DNA from: Stegostoma tigrinum
Taxonomy: Eukaryota
DNA length: 64,000 bases
Direction: 5' to 3'
NCBI RefSeq assembly: GCF_030684315.1
Contig: NC_081365.1
Location: 38,965,830-39,029,829 of the forward strand
The notes under the pieces are model-generated. The model saw only the letters and a program-made list of their open reading frames with translations. It had not been told where the DNA came from and searched no databases. Positions 4,096 to 51,582 of this stretch are shown here, piece after piece (position 1 is the first letter of the stretch; each line of letters begins with the position of its first letter). The translations under genes were made by a program, and so were the position numbers.

Positions 4096-4749
4096 GGATA
4101 TTTCCAGATACACAAATAGATGTATTCCAATGAGTAAGAACAATTCCAAAGAATGCACCCACCTAAGATTAACTAGAAAGATGAAAGCTAGTACTAAACT
4201 TTAAAAAAATATAATTGTGCAAAAATGGATGCCAGGTCTGAAGCTAGGATAGAATACAACAAACAGTTTCGAACAGTTAAAAAATTAATAAGGAAGGAAA
4301 AATTAGAGTATACAAGAGAAAGCAATCCGTAAGTATAAATATTTAAAATAAAGTTAGTGAACATTGATGTTTTGGGAAGGAAGCCTGAAGAATTATTAAC
4401 GCAAAATCAATTCATAGCAGGCCACTTGAAAAAATATTTTGCATACAAAATGAGGGTTTACTTTGTGGTAACCACAAACTTAGTGGAGAGCCAATGCGGA
4501 AAAAAATTGAAAGGACAATGTTTCACAGAAATTCTGATCAAAATCTTACTTTATTGTCTCGTTCCTCACCCTGAACTAAAGTGCGCTTTAAGAAAAAAAA
4601 AGTTTAATTTTGAAATCAATGTCTTTTTGATGGAGGCGGAAGAAAGAGGTGAAGGAGGAGGTGTACAGGAAATTTATCTATCCGCAGTGTGCATTAATCT
4701 TCTGCAAACTTTGGTGTACGAATTGTTGTATTGTTCACGAAGGGGGACA

Positions 4750-4947
4750 CATTGTTAATGCATGGCAGAAGTTAATATCCGGGTACTGATAGGGTTGGTT
4801 TTGCTGTTCCTTTCGGTCTGTGAGCAGCAGTCAATGTGGTGTGACACAGTGCTCGCTACACCCGCATCAATCTCGCTGCGACTTGAATTTCCCGCATGAT
4901 AACCAATATTTCCAAGTAACCCGTGAGGCAGCGTCATCCTCAGTAAC
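4750..4947 (+). promoter_or_regulatory. Putative proximal promoter/5' UTR of the receptor gene
   Basis: Non-repeat sequence conserved upstream of both paralogs (52742-52925, -); CCAAT near 4902, TGTGGT (RUNX-type) at 4834; lies at the start of a CpG-rich zone. Confidence 0.45.
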
Positions 4948-4984
4948 ATGGGCGCAGTTCTCAGGCTCTGGCTCTTGGTCTTAG
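4948..4984 (+). CDS. Exon 1, signal peptide [12 protein letters not shown](G)
   Basis: ATG at 4948, hydrophobic run, donor G|GTAAGG, 95-nt phase-1 intron as in Ig/TCR leader-V organisation; conserved in the paralog at 52741-52705. Confidence 0.88.
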
Positions 4985-7900
4985 GTAAGGATTCACTTTG
5001 ATTCCAGCTAGAAGTCATTACAGTTAGACTTGGATTCCGTGGAGCTAATGGTCCCATTTGTTGCCTTGTTATGTTCCAGGGCCTGTTGTCCCTCTGGAAG
5101 TGATTGAGTCTCCTCCAGTTCTCTCCCTCCTGAGAGGACAGACGGCTCGGATCGACTGTAGCCTGATACCGGGAGAGGAGCTGGCTGATTTTGTGAAATA
5201 TTATTGGTGTCGGGCAAGAGACGCTCCTGATTTGAACAGCAACATATCCAGGATCTTCGTGAAAAACAGCCCCCGTGTGTCCGTGTCTATGTCTGAGAGT
5301 TTTCTCATTATCCGGGAGCTGATGCTGAATGATTCGGACACTTACCGATGCGTGGTTCTTAGAGAGAAACCTCGGCCCTGGAAATACTTCCTGGGAAATG
5401 GAACAACATTGAACGTCCAAGGTAATTGTGAAAGATCGTAAATATTCAGCAGATTGGGTTGCATCTGGAAACAGAAACAGGTCACGGTTCAGATAAACGA
5501 CCTTTGCTGATAAACTGTTCACCAGTAAAACCTCCAGCTTCTTCCAGTTCTCACCAAAACACGCCGACCTGAGCCGTGACCTGTTTCTGTTCCCACAGAG
5601 ACTGCCTGAGTATTTCCAGCAACCGTGATATTTTGTTTCTGATTCAGTCTGGACAGACTAGACAGGGAGAGGCTATCCCATGTCCGAAACCAAGCGGTAC
5701 AGGCTGACACTGAATATCTCAAGAAGCAGAATCCACATGAGGGTTCGGTTTTAGCTCGCACTGCCGCAGAGTGTGGCGGACACAGATTCAATCGGGAATT
5801 TTAAAACAGGTTGGGACAACAACCTGAAGAGGAGCATTCCAAAGAGAAACATTTTTCAGAGTTGCCGAAAGAGCCGAGTTGCTCCGGCTCAGTATGGACA
5901 CGATGGGCCAAATCGCCTCGGTCTGTGCAGAGACCTTTCTCTGACTCGATTAAGGGAGAACGAAATAGCTCAATGTGCGAGAGAAGGAAACAGAAATAGT
6001 GCCCAGAAACACACTAATATAAACCAGACTGCGATGTTCTGTGGGATCGAATGGTTTGCCCGGGACGACCTTTAATCTGACGGTAACCCCTCACCACCTC
6101 CTTTTCTATTTAGACCCTTTCAGTCCAGATCCTTTTCAAAACTTAGTTTGAAGAAAAACGCCCAAAAGACAAAGCTCTGTAATCCGAAACCCAACAAAGT
6201 CAACTACGAAATTAAACAAAACTAATTTTGGGGAAAACGTTTATTTTTATTTATCATTTCCTGGAATATACTGCAATAAAGAAACACAACCCGAGGTTGT
6301 GTCGGAACGAAACCCCCTTTGGATCACGGGATCTCATTCTGGTTCACATTTTTCATAAAGGGTTATATTTTTCCTGGTGTCGGTCATTTGGAACTCGGTG
6401 TACCATTTATCAAATTGGTCCTGCACTGTCCCGTTGAGTATCAAAGTTGCACACAATTTTAATCGCCCCTCTCCTTGTTACCTGTATATTTCTATTGGCT
6501 ACAATGAAGTGTGATGTTTTGATGTGTTTATTTAGCGAAACCTGAAATCTCTCTGACTGCGGATCCCGAGAATGGAGATGTTGGGATTCAGACACTGACT
6601 TGTTTGGCCGCAGGATTCTTTCCGAGAGATCTGAACATTTCCTGGATTGTTGAGGGGGATGTCTCGTATCAGGAGGAGCCGGGCTCGCTGACAGTAAACA
6701 GTGACAGCAGCTACAACCTGACCTCCCGGCTGCGGATCACTGACCCTCAGCGGGAGCAGGGAGCCGCCGTCTCCTGTCTCATTGAACACAGGACATTCAA
6801 TGGGTCAGTGACAGCAAGCTTCAGCAACAGCACAGGTAGGTCCTTTAGCATTACATCCTACACTACATTATTCCAGGCTGCAGTTAGTGAGCCAGAAAAA
6901 ACAATTTCATTTTTAAACATGCAGTGTTCGAAATAGAATTACAGAAGAGTGAAATGCGCACTCTGCATTTTTAACCGTATTGCAGGAAAATGCACGCTAC
7001 ATTCCATTCAAATTGGCAAGTACCAGCGTTGTCTTCGTGTGTAATTATTGTAAATGATGGTGGTGAATGGAAATCGGCAAAAGCAAACAATCAGAGATAG
7101 TAGGAACTGCAGATGTTGGAGAATCAGAGATAACAAGGTGGAGAGCTAGATGAACACAGCAGGCCAAGCAGCATCAGAGGAGCAAGGTTTGTGAAGGAGG
7201 GTCGAAGTCCGGAAGGTCAGCTTTGCTGCTCCTTTGATGCTGCTTGGCCTGCTGTGTTCATCCAGCTCGACACCTTGTTGTCTCAAAAGCAATCAACTCG
7301 TTGGGAGCCGCAGTCGGAAATCTCAAACAAAGGAACTGACCCGGAATCAACTTCCAACATTTGTTTTCACACAGTTTAATTGTGTCAAACAGGTGGATTC
7401 GCTTCTGCCACTCTGTTAGAGCAGGGAATAACCTGGAGAAATATTAAAACGGAACGCAAGCGGTAGCCAGTTTCAACCCCCTGTTCTTACCCCGAGCGGT
7501 CTCAGAGCTGGTTTATCTCCAGCACATCCAGACGGAGTCGCTCCCTGCTTCCACACGAGGCGGCTCGGTAAAATGTGACCATTGACTAAAGAGCAATTCC
7601 GGCTTCAGGAAGAAGAGAAAAGGAATCAGAATGGGCAGCGTTTAAACGGCACGAAACAGAGGGGTAATTAACAACTTTGTAGCAAATGTCAGCAGTTCTA
7701 AATGGCACAGCAGGACCGATGCATTGCTGAGGCCGAGTGACTATGACTTCAATCTAGGCATTTCCAGAGAAAAACATTGCAGAAGCAAAGAGGGGAATGG
7801 AGTGGGAATGTTCTGTCAAACTCTCATCGCGACACCAGCAGTGAGCCGAATGGTCTGCTCCTGTGCTCCCATTTATAATTCCCGTTCTAGCCACATACCA

Positions 7901-43800: not shown

Positions 43801-46800
43801 AGCAAATTATCCATGTACACGTGAATGCAGAAAACCAAGGCACTGCCATCCCTTTACTGAAATCACGCCTCCATTTCTACTGCAGTTACACAGGCTTAAA
43901 GTCGGCATTGTAACCTGAGCTCCCTATTCAAATTATTAGGAATGTCAAACTTAATTTAAAATGAATCTCCATTATTCTCTTTCCCAAACCCTCATCCAAT
44001 GCGTTTTTTGAACTACAGCTGTACTGTTACCAAAGGTACCTTTGAAAATAATTTGTATTATTTTTGATTTTCAACGCAGAAGCGACAGTTATTCATGTTC
44101 CAAGTTGACAGTTATTATTATAAACTGCCAGCTGTGGCTCAAAAAGAAGACAAACTAGTTCACCAAACATGGGCATTGTCAGCACAATTGTATCTAACTT
44201 GAAAGTTGGAATTGAAGACTGTCCAGACCGACATTGTTGAAAATAAATTTTATGCCTTCACATCATCTTCTGTAAATTCTAAAACGCCCTTGTTGCTGTC
44301 TGTTTGCAGTTGATGGATAATGCTATAGATTGTGATAACAAGCCTCTTCTTACCCCATACATTCAGACATCTTAACTGCATGAGCGGGTGACATTTTTAG
44401 GACAATCGTTTAACTCATTTTCTGTTAATCAGCCTTTTCATAGTGTTTTGGCCTGGCAGCATAAAATAGCAAATTTTTTAGCAAGATTGGTTTCAAACTG
44501 CAGAGTCTGAGACATTGAGGCAGCCGGCAAAAGGAAATAATTTGCTACAGCCATATCAAAATATTCTGTACGTCCTCCATTCCAAACTGCTAATCCCAAT
44601 AAAGGCAGTGTAGGCATGCTCTCATGAGAGAGATATGACTGGGGGTAGATTAATCTGAGGGGTCACCATGCCTCATATGAAAGGTGAGATTGAGGAGAGG
44701 GGATTTCCCACTGTCCTCAGCCTGTTTGGGAATCGAATCCAAGCTGTTGGTGTTACTCTGTACTAGAGACCTGCCAACTGAGCTAAACAACTCCAATTCC
44801 GCACAGACTACCGCCGTTCAAAAGGACGTCTCAACAGCACCTTCTCAAGGGGAAATGTGGATGAACAGCAGACGCTGGTCTAACCCACAATGTCCATGTC
44901 CAAACTTACTTCATAATGTGCCTTTCCAATCCCACATACAATTAAACAAAATCTAGAAAATCTGTGGAGGTTGGACATCAGAAACAAAAATAAAATTGCT
45001 GGAGAAGCTCAGCAGGTCTGGCAGCATTTGTGGAGAGAAATCAGCGTTAACATTATTGGACCCTTTTTCAGAACTCATCCAACACATTTGTCTAAATACA
45101 GTTGTACTGTTACCCATGCTGCCCTTTTCAAAATGATTTGCATTATTTTAGTTTTCAGTGCATACACGATAACTAGCAATGTGACAAACTGACAATTATT
45201 ATTATAAACTGCCAGTTGTGGTTCAAAAAGAAATATTAAACTAGTTCACCGATATTGGAGATTGATCTTCTAATTTGAAAGTTGCAATTGGAGGCTGTCA
45301 GGACCAATATTGTTGAAGGACAGAACTAGAATCAGATGCTTAATTTTCTAATTCTTTTTTAGATCCAACCATGAGCTGAATAACTGATAAAAGGTTTTAG
45401 AAGTTTCTGAAAGTCACATGTACAGGTGTGTTTATTTAATGGCTCCTACCAACAAAGTCACTTTTGACAAGTAAGCTGCATTTGATTCCAGCATCAGCTA
45501 TCTCTGAGATGTTTACATTTGCATTTTGGTGAAAAGGTATTTGGAGCATGTCTGATTGATGCTTCACGAAACACAAAGGCCACATTTCTTACTAAGCAGT
45601 TACATCCTCAGTGATATTGTAAGGGTATTCCTTAATGTGAAATGCCAATTGTTTTTGTTTATGAATGTTAATTGCTTCAGTTACAGAAGTTCCTGGATTT
45701 GGAAAGAGAATAGGTTGGTGGAATGTTTATTTAATTTGATTTTCTTAATGTGGTTCAGTGTCACATTTTGACTGATAATACTTTTGGGAAGTGCCTTAAG
45801 ATAGTTTAGTGAAATAAAAGTGCTGGATAAATATTGCTGCAAATAAATCTCACGCCCTAACCCTTCACATCCATCTTCTGTAATTTCTAAATCACCATAG
45901 TTGATGTTTATTTGTAAGTGATTGATAGAGCTACAGATTGTTAGCGCAAGCCACTTGGGGCCAACGCAGTCTAGCACCTTAAATTCATGATGAGTGACAT
46001 ACATTTAGGACCAACGTTTATCTGTTTTTTTCGTTGGTCAGCTTTTTTAAAGATCAGTTGATCCGCAACCTATATTTATTTCAGAATCCTCTCCGATCCC
46101 CCTTTTTTCATGAAGGGTCGAGGACCGAAACGTCAGCTTTTGTGCTCCTAAGATGCTGCTGGGCCTGCTGTGTTCATCCAGCTCCACACTTTGTTATCTT
46201 GGATTCTCCAGCATCTGCAGTTCTCAATATCCACATTCCAGACAGATGAGGCTACTCAAGCGCACATCTTCCTACCACCTTCTCAAGGGGAAATGTGGAT
46301 GAGCAGCAGACGCTGGTCTAACCCGCAATGTCCACGTCCTAAAAATGTATTAAAACCCCAGAAAAGGCTGCAAATAATGGGCAGCATCTGCGGGGAGGGA
46401 GACCGCGGACCTTTCCAATTGTCTCCTTGGTGTTGTGAATGAAAGGTCACCACCTGAAATGTTTGACTCGCTTTCCAGAGATACGACCTAACCCGTGTTA
46501 CCAGCATTTTCTGCTTTCAGTTCAGATTGCCAACATTTTGGTTCTGGAGTGCTGTGTCCCGCCGTCTGCTGAGGATTGGCTCTCAGCCGCTTTCAAAGCT
46601 GCCGGTGGGTAATCGCCCCATCTGTACGTTTCCAATGTGTCCCCTCGCTGTTTCTTTGGCAATCCTTGTTTTAAAAGCGATGATAATGACCAGGGAATTT
46701 TTTTTCCGCTGTCGGCCTCTCTATCTCTCTCTCTCTTTCAAAGACATAAAGTTTGGGAATTCGGGATATAATCTTATTTACCTGAGCTTTAATGAGCAGG

Positions 46801-47816
46801 GATAGGAGCGAGGCAAAGGCGCTTGTCTGACGCGATGGATTGAATTGAATGGAGATGGTCGTTTCTTTTCCCTGCAGTTACATTCCTGCATCTAAAATGC
46901 CAACCGGACTTTGGTAATGAGACAATGTAGCTCGTGTTTTTTGGGATTTATAGACTGTCTAGTGTGTACCCGGCCAGTGATAGTGGTGTAACAGGAGCTT
47001 TGAACGCTGTCTGTACACAGCTAGAACAGAGCGAAGCGGCGGAAGGAATGTAAATATATCGACCACAGAGCACACCAGGTTCACTCGATTCTCGGCTGGT
47101 ACACGCAGTGAGAAATCTGCCAACCGGTTAATGGTATGTGGCTAGAACGGGAATTATAAATGGGAGCACAGGAGCAGACCATTCGGCTCACTGCTGGTGT
47201 CGCGATGAGAGTTTGACAGAACATTCCCACTCCATTCCCCTCTTTGCTTCTGCAATGTTTTTCTCTGGAAATGCCTAGATTGAAGTCATAGTCACTCGGC
47301 CTCAGCAATGCATCGGTCCTGCTGTGCCATTTAGAACTGCTGACATTTGCTACAAAGTTGTTAATTACCCCTCTGTTTCGTGCCGTTTAAACGCTGCCCA
47401 TTCTGATTCCTTTTCTCTTCTTCCTGAAGCCGGAATTGCTCTTTAGTCAATGGTCACATTTTACCGAGCCGCCTCGTGTGGAAGCAGGGAGCGACTCCGT
47501 CTGGATGTGCTGGAGATAAACCAGCTCTGAGACCGCTCGGGGTAAGAACAGGGGGTTGAAACTGGCTACCGCTTGCGTTCCGTTTTAATATTTCTCCAGG
47601 TTATTCCCTGCTCTAACAGAGTGGCAGAAGCGAATCCCACCTGTTTGACACAATTAAACTGTGTGAAAACAAATGTTGGAAGTTGATTCCGGGTCAGTTC
47701 CTTTGTTTGAGATTTCCGACTGCGGCTCCCAACGAGTTGATTGCTTTTGAGACAACAAGGTGTCGAGCTGGATGAACACAGCAGGCCAAGCAGCATCAAA
47801 GGAGCAGGAAAGCTGA

Positions 47817-50521
47817 TTTTGGAACACTCCGGGAAGTGCCTTTTCTGAGTCCTTACATCGCTCGCCGATGTTTGTGTATTCTCTAGCATCACCACGGACC
47901 AAGGACCAGGTGATACTGGTGTTATATGAGGCTGGTTGTTATCGTCATTATCAGCGGGGCCCTACTGATGTTATTGGCTTTGTAAGGATTATGTGGACCT
48001 GCTTCTGTCTCGGTGGAGGACCTTACCTCACCGTTTGCGGTTTTTGCTCACTTGTCACTGAAGAGTTGTAAAAGTTAGAGTGTCAGTGACAGAGCGAGTC
48101 TTGATGTCTTTTGGGCGAAAGTATCGTATCTCTCGATGCCGAGGAATTTCATGAGGCGGTTATTCACATCCAGCCACTTGCCTCGTGCGCCCATCACAAA
48201 GCCAAAGTATCTGGGCACCACGCCTCCCGTCAATTCCATGACCTCGGCATTCAGGTGTTTATACTTTTCCTGTTTCTCTCGCCATGCTGTTTCCAGTGCT
48301 TTACTGTCATTCTCGTACCGCACTGTGACATCTACAACCGCGATCTTCTGGTCTTTTCTAAATTTGAGATCGGGTTTCCATAGGGAGCCGTTTTCGTCAA
48401 ACAGTCTGGGCTCCACGTACGATGTCCAGCCCTACTTACTGACATGTTTCTGCAACTGGTCAGCGATCTTGTTATGGCGTTTTATCCGAGCATTTTTTAT
48501 GAATGGGCAGCATCCTGAGATGTGTGATATGGTTTCGTTTGCCATCTCACACCTTCGGCATAATTTGTTTCGGTTTGGCCTACCTCTAGATAATGTGGTT
48601 CTTGTCGGGTATAGATTACACCACAAGAGCACGCTGTTAATAAATCTAGAGGATTTTTGCTGTACTCCGGCCTTTGTCCAAGATTTAGAGATTTTGTCGT
48701 CTCTAAAGTACTGGATGCCTGCCCCTTGACATTCCAGCTTTTGCCATTTTTCGAATTCCCACTCTCTCCAGCCTGCATACCTATTGGGTGGTTTTGGTCG
48801 TCCCGCGTTTGCCTTTTCGAGTGCCGGCATCATGCCTTGGATGGTGGTCATCAGGTCGATTTTCCCCTCGCCACTGCTGCAGCTACTGGGTTGGAAATTT
48901 TCAATTTCCTTGAGGACCTTGAGCTCGCGCAGTCCCGCAACGGTCTCTGTGTTGCTCTCTCCTTTATATTGAAAGGAGGCCCAAATGGCCACATCACTGG
49001 ACATGTCTAGTGCCTCGCGTTTGCAAACAATCGTGGATGGGATTTGCACTTCTAGTTTTGGGACGCCTAGACCGCCGTTCTTGTTGCTAGCGTATAGCAT
49101 TCCGTCTGCTGTATGAGGTGGTAGGTGTAGGAATTCTTTGGTGGCGTTGCGGATTATCTGGTCCAGCTTTATGAGAGTAACCTGTGATGCTTCTGTCAGG
49201 ATCAGATGGAAGTACAATCCGGGGATGACATGTGCTTTTAGGATCACCAGCCGTTGTCGTGGTCGGAGAGATGCTGCCTGTATTCCCTTAACCCAGGACT
49301 TAAGCTTCTCCTCCCACTCCCCTTCTGCCACACCTGCCCATGGATTGATGCGGGCACCCAGGTATTTCTCTGTGTCACCTGGGGGTATGTAGGCTATGGA
49401 TTCGTCCCTCAGATTTCAGTTTGCGAAGTGATTGTACAAGAAGTTTTCCTTTTAAACGTGAAGTGGAATCCCTTCGTCTTCGCTGTGTTTATACTGAGGC
49501 CTGTATGGTCACAGTATGCCTGGAGTAGCTTCAGGTTCCTAGCCATACCGGTGTGTGAGTCACTTAGAAGGGCGATGTTATCCACGAAGGCCAAAGTCGA
49601 GCAGTTGACTCTTCTGCTGCCCAGGGGCATGGAGACCCCTGAGTTGGCCCTCTCCAGAGAGCACACCAATGGATCCAAAGCAATGTTAAATAGTATTGGT
49701 GAGAGTGGGTCGCCCTGCTTTACGCCCCTCTCAATGGTTATTGGGGTGGTAAAGTTTCTGTTCCCTCCCACCACTGTTGTGTTGCCAGTGTATAGGTCTT
49801 CAATGAGACTTACAAAGGCTTTGGGTAGTTTCATTCTTTGCAGAGATTTGATAAATAGTTTGTGCCCAACCGAGTCGAATGCTTTCGCTAGATCGACAAA
49901 GACAACTGCGAGGTCCTTATGATTGTATTTTGCTCCCTTGATGATATTTTCGAGGTCAACAATGTTTTCATTGCATCTGGGAGTGGCTGCTAGAAAACCC
50001 TTTTGCCTGGGGTTTATTTCGACTGTTTCACTTAGGCATTTTGCCATTATTTTCATGAATAGCCGGAGCAGCATTGGACCGATGGTTATTGGTCGCCAGT
50101 TATCAGTGCTTTTCAAGCGTTCCTTATCCTCACACTTAGGAATCAGGACCGTTCGACTCTTTTTTAGTGAATCGGGGATCGTGCTTGACTTTAGCCATGA
50201 GGAGAGGAGGCGGGGTAGACGAGTTTCCTCCTGCTCATGGAGTGTTCTTATGTCCTGCAGTTTCAGGCCGTCTGGTCCAGCGGCACTGTTCTCATCTATC
50301 CCCTTGATGGCCGCTTCAACCTCCTCTACCTCTATGGTTTTCATCAAGGACCCGTCATCGACTTTGCCAGTGTATGGCGCACACTTATTTATGTTCGATT
50401 TCTTGTTTGGTGCTGACAGTTTCTCACGGAAATGTCTCCAATTCCTCTTTTGAGAGAGGACAAGTGGATGAGGTCAGCGCCCCCATGATCTCGCGAGCTA
50501 GTTGACGCCGGTTGGATTTGT
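47817..50521 (-). mobile_element. 5'-truncated R2-clade non-LTR retrotransposon (RT + CCHC + restriction-like endonuclease), disrupted ORF
   Basis: WRPITI, INPRQKGF, FVDLAKAFDSV, GVKQGDPLSPILFN, LAFVDN (for FADD), GGLG, CRRC...ETISHISGCC, RHNKI, KPDL, VVDVTVRYE, GARGKW; 3' UTR of about 260 bp ending AAAA. Junctions were defined against the uninterrupted paralog. Confidence 0.92.
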
Positions 50522-51582
50522 AGGGTCAGTGATCCGCAGCCGGGAGGTCAGGTTGTAGCTGCTGTCACTGTTTACTGTCAGCGAGCCCGGCTCCTCCTGA
50601 TACGAGACATCCCCCTCAACAATCCAGGAAATGTTCAGATCTCTCGGAGAGAATCCTGCGGCCAAACAAGTCAGTGTCTGAATCCCAACATCTCCATTCT
50701 CGGGATCCGCAGTCAGAGAGATTTCAGGTTTCGCTAAATAAACACATCAAAACATCACACTTCATTGTAGCCAATAGAAATATACAGGTAACAAGGAGAG
50801 GGGCGATTAAAATTGTGTGCAACTTTGATACTCAACGGGACAGTGCAGGACCAATTTGATAAATGGTACACCGAGTTCCAAATGACCGACACCAGGAAAA
50901 ATATAACCCTTTATGAAAAATGTGAACCAGAATGAGATCCCGTGATCCAAAATCAGTTTCGTTCCGACACAACCTCGGGTTGTGTTTCTTTATTGCAGTA
51001 TATTCCAGGAAATGATAAATAAAAATAAACATTTTCCCCAAAATTAGTTTTGTTTAATTTCGTAGTTGACTTTGTTGGGTTTCGGATTACAGAGCTTTGT
51101 CTTTTGGCGTTTTTCTTCAGACTATGTTTTGAAAAGATAACAAAGTGTGAAGCTGGATGAACACAGCAGGCCAAGAAGCATCTTAGGAGCACAAAAGCTG
51201 ACTTTTCGGGCCTAGACCCTTTGAAAAGGATCTGGACTGAGAGGATCTAATAGAAAAGGAGGTGGTGAGTGGTTACCGTCAGATTAAAGCTATCTCGGGC
51301 AAACCATCTGATCCCACAGAACATCCCAGTCTGGTTTATATCACTGTGTTACTGGGCAGTATTTCTATTTCTTTCTCTCGCTTGTTGAGCTATTTTGCTC
51401 TCCCTTAATATAGCCAAAGAAAGTTCACTGCACAGAACGAGGCGATTTGGCCCATCGCATCCATTCTGAGCCAGAGCAACTCGGATGGTTAAACCATTTA
51501 TCCACAAGCATCTGACCCGTGACTTCTTTCTCCTTCCAGAACCAGCCCTTCCTGCTGAATATTTCTGATTTTTAACAATTAC

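Follow-up and report, generated by a model that had tools for sequence, protein, structure and literature searches.

A decayed R2 copy outside rDNA in Stegostoma tigrinum and the 28S-like target signature of its dispersed family

Lineage-A R2 proteins are under development for gene insertion. The engineered and structural background of these elements is available (PMC11371274, PMC12180492), and off-target insertions of R2Tg in human cells have been described as matching 28S over 4–5 nt downstream and at −25 to −19 upstream (PMC12222951), with little identity beyond the downstream pairing at engineered off-targets according to the other account (PMC11371274). In Drosophila, off-target sites of R1 (118 cases) show 4–9 bp of 28S identity, often lie in repeats and carry a 28S leader, and R2 strays are frequently incomplete and 1–2% divergent (PMC2718515). 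The flatworm elements R2NS-1_SMed and R2NS-1_CSi are listed as non-specific and R8 and R9 as retargeted, all of them outside the canonical 28S site (PMC5035012). A 2026 review holds, in the part drawn on here, that labelling R2 elements as specific or non-specific is probably too simple, that specificity is a range, and that loss rates differ inside and outside rDNA (PMC13580325). Shark R2 elements flanked by 28S are known (PMC13188248, PMC5035012); dispersed shark copies are unmentioned in the portion of the former account used here. The literature searched, of partial coverage, contained no account of R2 scattering on a large scale in sharks.

The stretch analysed here, referred to as the window, comprises 64,000 nucleotides of Stegostoma tigrinum DNA (contig NC_081365.1, positions 38,965,830 to 39,029,829) and contains one decayed R2 copy. 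The family to which it belongs shares with the vertebrate lineage-A R2 elements of known structure (9nl2, 9nl3, 9dou) the three zinc fingers, Myb, reverse transcriptase (RT) and restriction-like endonuclease (RLE), the canonical 28S site and a 28S leader of about 28 nt. It differs from them in being located mostly outside rDNA in this assembly (59 of the 73 matches for its 3'-end pattern). Unlike R2NS-1_SMed, R2NS-1_CSi, R8 and R9, which have lost or changed their target, the shark family retains both its 28S residence and a 28S-like signature at the dispersed sites. The natural strays display the same downstream and −25 to −19 upstream features as the R2Tg off-targets; however, the latter are engineered, somatic and make up at most 1% of events, whereas the shark insertions are fixed and recur 19 times at one LINE site. 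Whereas the Drosophila R2 strays are incomplete and 1–2% divergent, most of those in the shark are full-length, and their ladder extends over about 17% divergence.

The R2 copy in the window and its relatives in 28S units

The window contains an old inverted duplication (blocks 70–88% identical) that includes two blocks near 99%. One arm carries an intact Ig C1-set exon (6536..6835, plus strand; Pfam C1-set E=5.5e-13, exon limits read from AG/GT; best PDB match UrIg2, 9dmx) of a V-C1 immunoglobulin-superfamily gene, the V-like frame of which was read by eye at 4690–5290. In a self-BLAST, 6132–6747 matches 51136–50522 at 98.5% (9 differing columns in 616 bp) and 7217–10131 matches 47816–44901 at 99.3% (20 differences in 2,916 bp). 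Between these blocks, 47817..50521 (2,705 bp, minus strand) stands where the paralog has 6748..7216 (469 bp, plus strand). This segment, present only in the empty paralog, includes the last 88 bp of the C1 exon, the splice donor, the intron and the left arm of a palindrome, and ends GGAAGG at the empty site. The exon of the other paralog is accordingly truncated (50522..50733, minus strand), without the second cysteine and without the splice donor. The self-BLAST and the motif positions given below thus confirm what the first-pass annotation had read from the sequence, namely that an element with R2 motifs and no target-site duplication replaces the equivalent of 6748–7216. Its further statement that the insertion deleted 469 bp stands only in part: the segment is absent, and its deletion is something we infer from a paralog that acquired its 99% identity after the insertion.

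The copy is a 5'-truncated, decayed lineage-A R2 representing the 3' 2.7 kb of an element of ~4.25 kb. Its 3' UTR (47817..48074, minus strand) finishes at ..GTGTTCCAAAA, the precise 3' end of the family, which is the same in dispersed copies; this end, ..GTTCCAAAA, adjoins TCAGCTTTCCTGCTCC. At the opposite, 5' junction, 1 nt of microhomology is present. The ORF remnant (48075..50519, minus strand; stop codon at 48077–48075) covers the RT, a CCHC knuckle and the RLE, and is broken by two frameshifts and by stops: comparison with the intact rDNA ORF (tblastn) yields three pieces in frames 3/1/3, and codon projection counts 3 stops. The RT active-site motif reads FVDN, as against FADD in the intact copy. 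The motifs KPDL, VVDVTVRYE and GARGKW start at 48377, 48338 and 48191, and the CCHC motif, read from the translation, lies at about 48560–48507, the knuckle and the RLE both being present at the C terminus. Apart from one sub-threshold match, Pfam searches with 12 window ORFs recovered nothing beyond the C1 exon and two fragments of the endonuclease.

The best solved-structure matches of the C-terminal frame are the vertebrate R2 proteins 9nl2, 9nl3 and 9dou. In the protein tree, which has no rows for R8, R9, NeSL or Utopia, the window RT frame is sister to the intact R2 from rDNA (support 100/100), and the two are nested in a shark plus coelacanth clade (98/94); the supported placement extends no deeper than these nodes. 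This tree places the element with rDNA R2, and together with the structure matches it upholds the identification as an R2 located outside rDNA. The window itself was likewise correctly described as free of rDNA, with 0 Rfam matches to it and no BLAST match to Stegostoma tigrinum 28S. Taken by itself the copy is ordinary: a dead insertion that truncated one Ig-superfamily paralog.

The assembly (3.2 Gb, 835 contigs) contains 143 exact empty 28S sites, the 100 listed all being on small contigs. At 40 sites the base preceding downstream 28S is something other than G; small contigs account for 25 of these. Twenty such loci in rDNA were fetched at length. Ten hold a lineage-A R2 at AAGG|TAGCC, six a deleted derivative, three a second R2 lineage and one a short 3' stub. 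The ten lineage-A copies match the window copy over its whole length at 87.4–87.8% identity; the inspection of 28S units that had been recommended has thus turned up an 88% relative at the canonical site. Open frames of these copies measure 1,092–1,317 aa, the intact ORFs 1,297–1,317 aa. An intact protein (P0001) possesses three N-terminal zinc fingers, Myb, RT and RLE; the fingers and Myb are absent from the truncated window copy. P0001 aligns to 9nl2 from residue 176, and its Myb domain is assigned from that alignment, with no Pfam hit. Its bit scores are 731 to 9nl2, 297 to 8gh6 and 110 to L1. The nearest proteins to the rDNA R2 come from catshark and bamboo shark. Two catshark R2 proteins (P0002 and P0005) are encoded on scaffolds of 255 kb and 487 kb, a placement that hints at strays in other sharks.

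Other elements share these 28S units. The deleted derivative is a non-autonomous, internally deleted R2 of ~800 bp (L098, L099, L108, L111, L114, L115), and 11 short elements resembling it occur among the strays. Another intact R2 (L101:2299-5832), representing a second lineage, has two zinc-finger motifs and is 28% identical to the first. Two 28S-tailed inserts with other 3' ends (L080 and L078) are possibly further extinct R2 families.

Dispersed copies and their target sites

A search with the 3' UTR gave 201 candidates, of which 40 were scored; its query was the window copy, which favours that copy's own cluster, and the 77 loci of the family analysed below are a partial fetch relative to those 201 first-look candidates. 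The 3'-end pattern has 73 exact matches, 59 on contigs C1–C64 and 14 on small contigs; all 10 examined of the latter are 28S insertions. The family is consequently not a set of 28S residents with a single off-target event, one of the outcomes envisaged in the first-pass annotation: copies in 28S do exist, yet 59 of the 73 matches lie outside rDNA. Eighty-one chromosomal loci were examined, the window included, and 77 belong to this lineage: 59 have the precise 3' end, 13 a 28S tail and 5 are truncated at the 3' end. Left uncounted were four loci without a match to the lineage (L223–L226), the five 3'-truncated copies and five near-identical rearranged R2 pieces on a single contig, C56 (L017–L020, L025), which are likely segmental duplicates.

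The 5' end of the element is reached by 51 of the 59 precise strays. Full-length strays begin at −28 or further downstream, usually with part of the 28S leader still in front of the element; among the first 20 long loci retrieved, 15 have such −28 leader remnants (9–26 nt of 28S identity), and pairing of the leader with the element's 5' terminus scores z=−5.2. One full-length stray (L063, contig C20) has more than 80 nt of upstream 28S, tandem leader repeats and a non-28S TCAGC flank downstream. The 13 tailed strays continue into 13–758 nt of downstream 28S and do not end at the R2 3' end; they look like the outcome of a process different from that behind the precise strays. Two of them (L174 and L190) are of the window copy's own subfamily, which points to masters in rDNA.

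On either side of the nick, the flanks of the dispersed copies still resemble 28S. Downstream, the flanks of the 40 precise copies outside the CR1-like site described below begin with T in 37, TA in 31, TAG in 22 and TCAGC in 3. Upstream of the leader, GGGAGTA, a 28S motif near −25 to −19, occurs at 6/7 or better in 17 of 27 strays, compared with 20 of 457 control windows; this count leaves out L171 (no upstream flank), L063 (28S upstream) and copies in which no leader was detected. The 3' flanks, tabulated as suggested in the first-pass annotation, are thus non-random and 28S-like.

One site accounts for 19 of the 59 precise copies. It is located in a LINE that we take to be CR1-like from motifs of its reading frame. 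The empty form of this site has 4,959 matches and already possesses GGGAGTA 26–20 nt upstream and TAG downstream. Copies at this site (13 of 46 tips) are not clustered in the tree (11 label changes against 11.6 when shuffled, P=0.43) and thus represent separate insertions, not a new lineage; a self-propagating CR1-resident sub-lineage was rejected on this basis. All 18 measurable insertions at the site lost 0–11 bp. The idea that an abundant repeat serves as a second target was therefore sound with respect to a different repeat from the one proposed: the CR1-like site received 19 of the 59 precise copies, and the hammerhead-motif repeat at which the window copy lies received 1. Three strays (L171, L173, L216) approximately share another position in CR1-like LINEs, close to a DLGVQ motif, which makes it a possible second hot spot.

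The second R2 lineage of the rDNA, that with two zinc fingers, has 18 chromosomal matches (L232–L253), 3 with 28S tails; 14 of the 15 others are followed by TAGC. Since this lineage scatters too, leakage is not peculiar to one lineage. One of its strays (L247) is 99.3% identical to the rDNA copy, and leakage is therefore recent.

In a tree of 61 copies, the dispersed copies form a ladder along a trunk that ends in the present rDNA copies, those farther from the latter having longer tips (Spearman 0.59, n=54). Purifying selection is evident along the trunk (dN/dS 0.17), and changes private to single copies are close to neutral (0.80 pooled, 0.81 for the window copy); a pooled tip value of 0.41, calculated against the majority, was set aside for having included shared master variants. 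The master lineage has accumulated 0.171 substitutions per site versus 0.028 in the dead copy, being about six times faster. The window copy falls in the oldest dense cluster, which takes in about 40 of the tree's 54 copies from outside rDNA. The dispersed family is thus a natural off-target record together with a ladder of extinct masters.

Origin of the window copy

The 3' junction adjoins the remaining arm of a repeat (47748..47816, minus strand) that begins TCAGC at the junction. A CUGAUGA..GAAA core and a GUC site are seen directly in this repeat, and beyond that motif we take it to be a hammerhead, Penelope-like pLTR. Rfam gave no match to it in the window, and its fold energy (z=0.85) lends no support from energy alone. 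Elsewhere in the window, copies of the repeat read GAAACG|TCAGC at the point equivalent to the junction, which falls 2 nt short of the end of GTC, in agreement with the earlier report of a junction near the cleavage motif. The GAAACG|TC site then proposed holds for those other copies and not for the empty paralog, which reads GGAAGG|TCAGC. The paralog is the only one of 18 regex matches in the window with AAGG at this position, and it has AAGG|T in common with the 28S target of Stegostoma tigrinum (AAGG|TAGCC).

The window copy is very probably an off-target insertion by an R2 of lineage A resident in rDNA, and reflects neither lost specificity nor retargeting to a ribozyme. Lost specificity, one of two explanations offered in the first-pass annotation, is contradicted by the intact relative with three zinc fingers at the canonical 28S site and by the 28S-like flanks of the strays; a non-specific R2 of the R2NS type was rejected on account of this sequence preference and rDNA residence. 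Under the off-target reading, RNA from an rDNA-resident master would have been released from the 28S co-transcript by its own ribozyme, cutting about 28 nt ahead of the element, and would have carried a UAGC.. 28S tail at its 3' end. The R2 protein would then have reverse-transcribed this RNA at a chromosomal sequence similar to the 28S target. In the window that sequence is AAGG|TCAGC, part of a hammerhead repeat that has decayed, and the tail could pair there around one bulged base; the 5' end would have been joined with 1 nt of microhomology. The 469 bp may have been lost by resection during 5' joining, or by one later deletion across the 5' junction that also removed the 5' 1.5 kb of the element; such a deletion would account for both the loss and the truncation and would be indistinguishable from resection. 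The copy would subsequently have decayed neutrally, its flanks likely being re-homogenised by gene conversion. It would thereby be one of at least 59 precise strays at sites with GGGAGTA (near −25 to −19) and TAG, the CR1-like hot spot among them.

Several observations weigh against this reading. The window site is a weak mimic of 28S: its empty form matches at 11 of 25 upstream positions and at 4 of 7 in the motif, is without T−20, and has a TCAGC that needs a bulge to pair. The sole evidence for the empty site is a paralog that was homogenised later than the insertion, and the 469-bp loss is atypical in comparison with the 0–11 bp at CR1-site insertions. Furthermore, no rDNA copy of the exact subfamily of the window copy occurs among the 20 rDNA loci examined, so we infer the rDNA residence of its master from the 28S tails and the tree.

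The flanks also appear younger than the insertion. They are 0.7% apart, whereas the window R2 has 2.7% private decay, with a CpG excess (9.3% versus 2.0%) like that of neighbouring copies in the tree; conversion on both sides of the insertion must therefore be assumed. Young flanks around an old R2 are most simply reconciled by gene conversion that afterwards reached both junctions. The flank 44901..47816 (minus strand) is likely a recent gene-conversion block inside the older inverted duplication, and 50522..51136 (minus strand) likely another such block. The whole 99% block (6132–10131/44901–51136) is bounded by heterologies, and its exon region has only two copies in the assembly. Among sequencing-run contigs over 47300–51000 from four runs, none listed bridges either junction, contigs of this kind dropping rare variants. 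In two runs of one sample a flank contig continues past 50522 with non-matching sequence, which is for the same reason uninformative on insertion polymorphism. In two further organisms R2-like contigs extend along the whole element, with the flanks unresolved.

An alternative that we consider unlikely is that a sub-lineage with temporarily relaxed specificity, or dispersed full-length masters that kept the ribozyme leader, spread partly independently of rDNA, and that the window copy was part of this burst. The dense cluster, the high proportion of strays reaching the 5' end and two CR1-site sister pairs (support 97 and 100) would fit it, as would the differences between burst-era and present proteins at 8 of 100 zinc-finger, 3 of 56 Myb and 16 of 177 knuckle/endonuclease positions. 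However, copies of the subfamily carry 28S tails (L174, L190) or upstream 28S (L063), the CR1-site copies as a whole are unclustered, and younger copies and the second R2 lineage leak alike; higher activity explains the cluster equally well, and the query favoured it. Less probable still is a recent paste at the DNA level from an older R2 that was already dead, through templated break repair or by ectopic conversion between homologous hammerhead repeats. This would explain the contrast between the young flanks and the decayed, CpG-rich changes of the R2, and the atypical 469-bp loss, but the 3' end is precise and no donor was found, the best identity to the window copy being 95.6% among fetched copies and 96% among the 40 scored of 201 candidates from the 3' UTR search.

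The retargeting of an R2 lineage to the hammerhead/pLTR repeat near its cleavage site, the other explanation first offered, hardly survives: the intact junction motif has 147,123 exact genomic matches, yet the window copy alone among the 59 precise copies has its junction inside the repeat. Per site, insertions are about 560-fold rarer than at the CR1-like site, the repeat lies within 60 bp downstream of 2 of the 59 precise copies as against 13 of 408 background windows (p=0.56), and the other two TCAGC junctions are outside it. Landing in the hammerhead repeat is thus at chance level and the location incidental, for all that the junction is 2 nt from the GTC motif. The remaining point in favour of retargeting comes from the 28S-tailed strays, 6 of 13 of which are situated within 60 bp of a hammerhead palindrome (expected about 6%, p=7e-5), although these copies look like a different process. 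They are L174, L179, L180, L194, L196 and L203, to which L202 may be added by eye; L196 is placed between two inverted arms. This association suggests that Penelope-like machinery may capture R2–28S RNA.

What the dispersed copies record

The feature in the window is real, and off-target R2 insertion is as a kind already known. The result at the level of the family outweighs the single copy: natural insertions reproduce the off-target motif of R2Tg and reveal a repeated decoy site. The shark strays preserve a ladder of extinct masters and, with it, a record of how an R2 relevant to gene therapy misses its target. More tentatively, and in our estimate with a minority chance of being correct as a whole, shark genomes may keep a time-ordered series of rDNA R2 elements that is normally erased by rDNA turnover, with an episode of relaxed specificity, a 5,000-copy CR1 decoy drawing a third of the insertions, and Penelope-like capture of R2–28S read-through RNA. 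If this were so, the protein changes along the ladder, set against the site preferences, would constitute a natural map of the determinants of R2 specificity.
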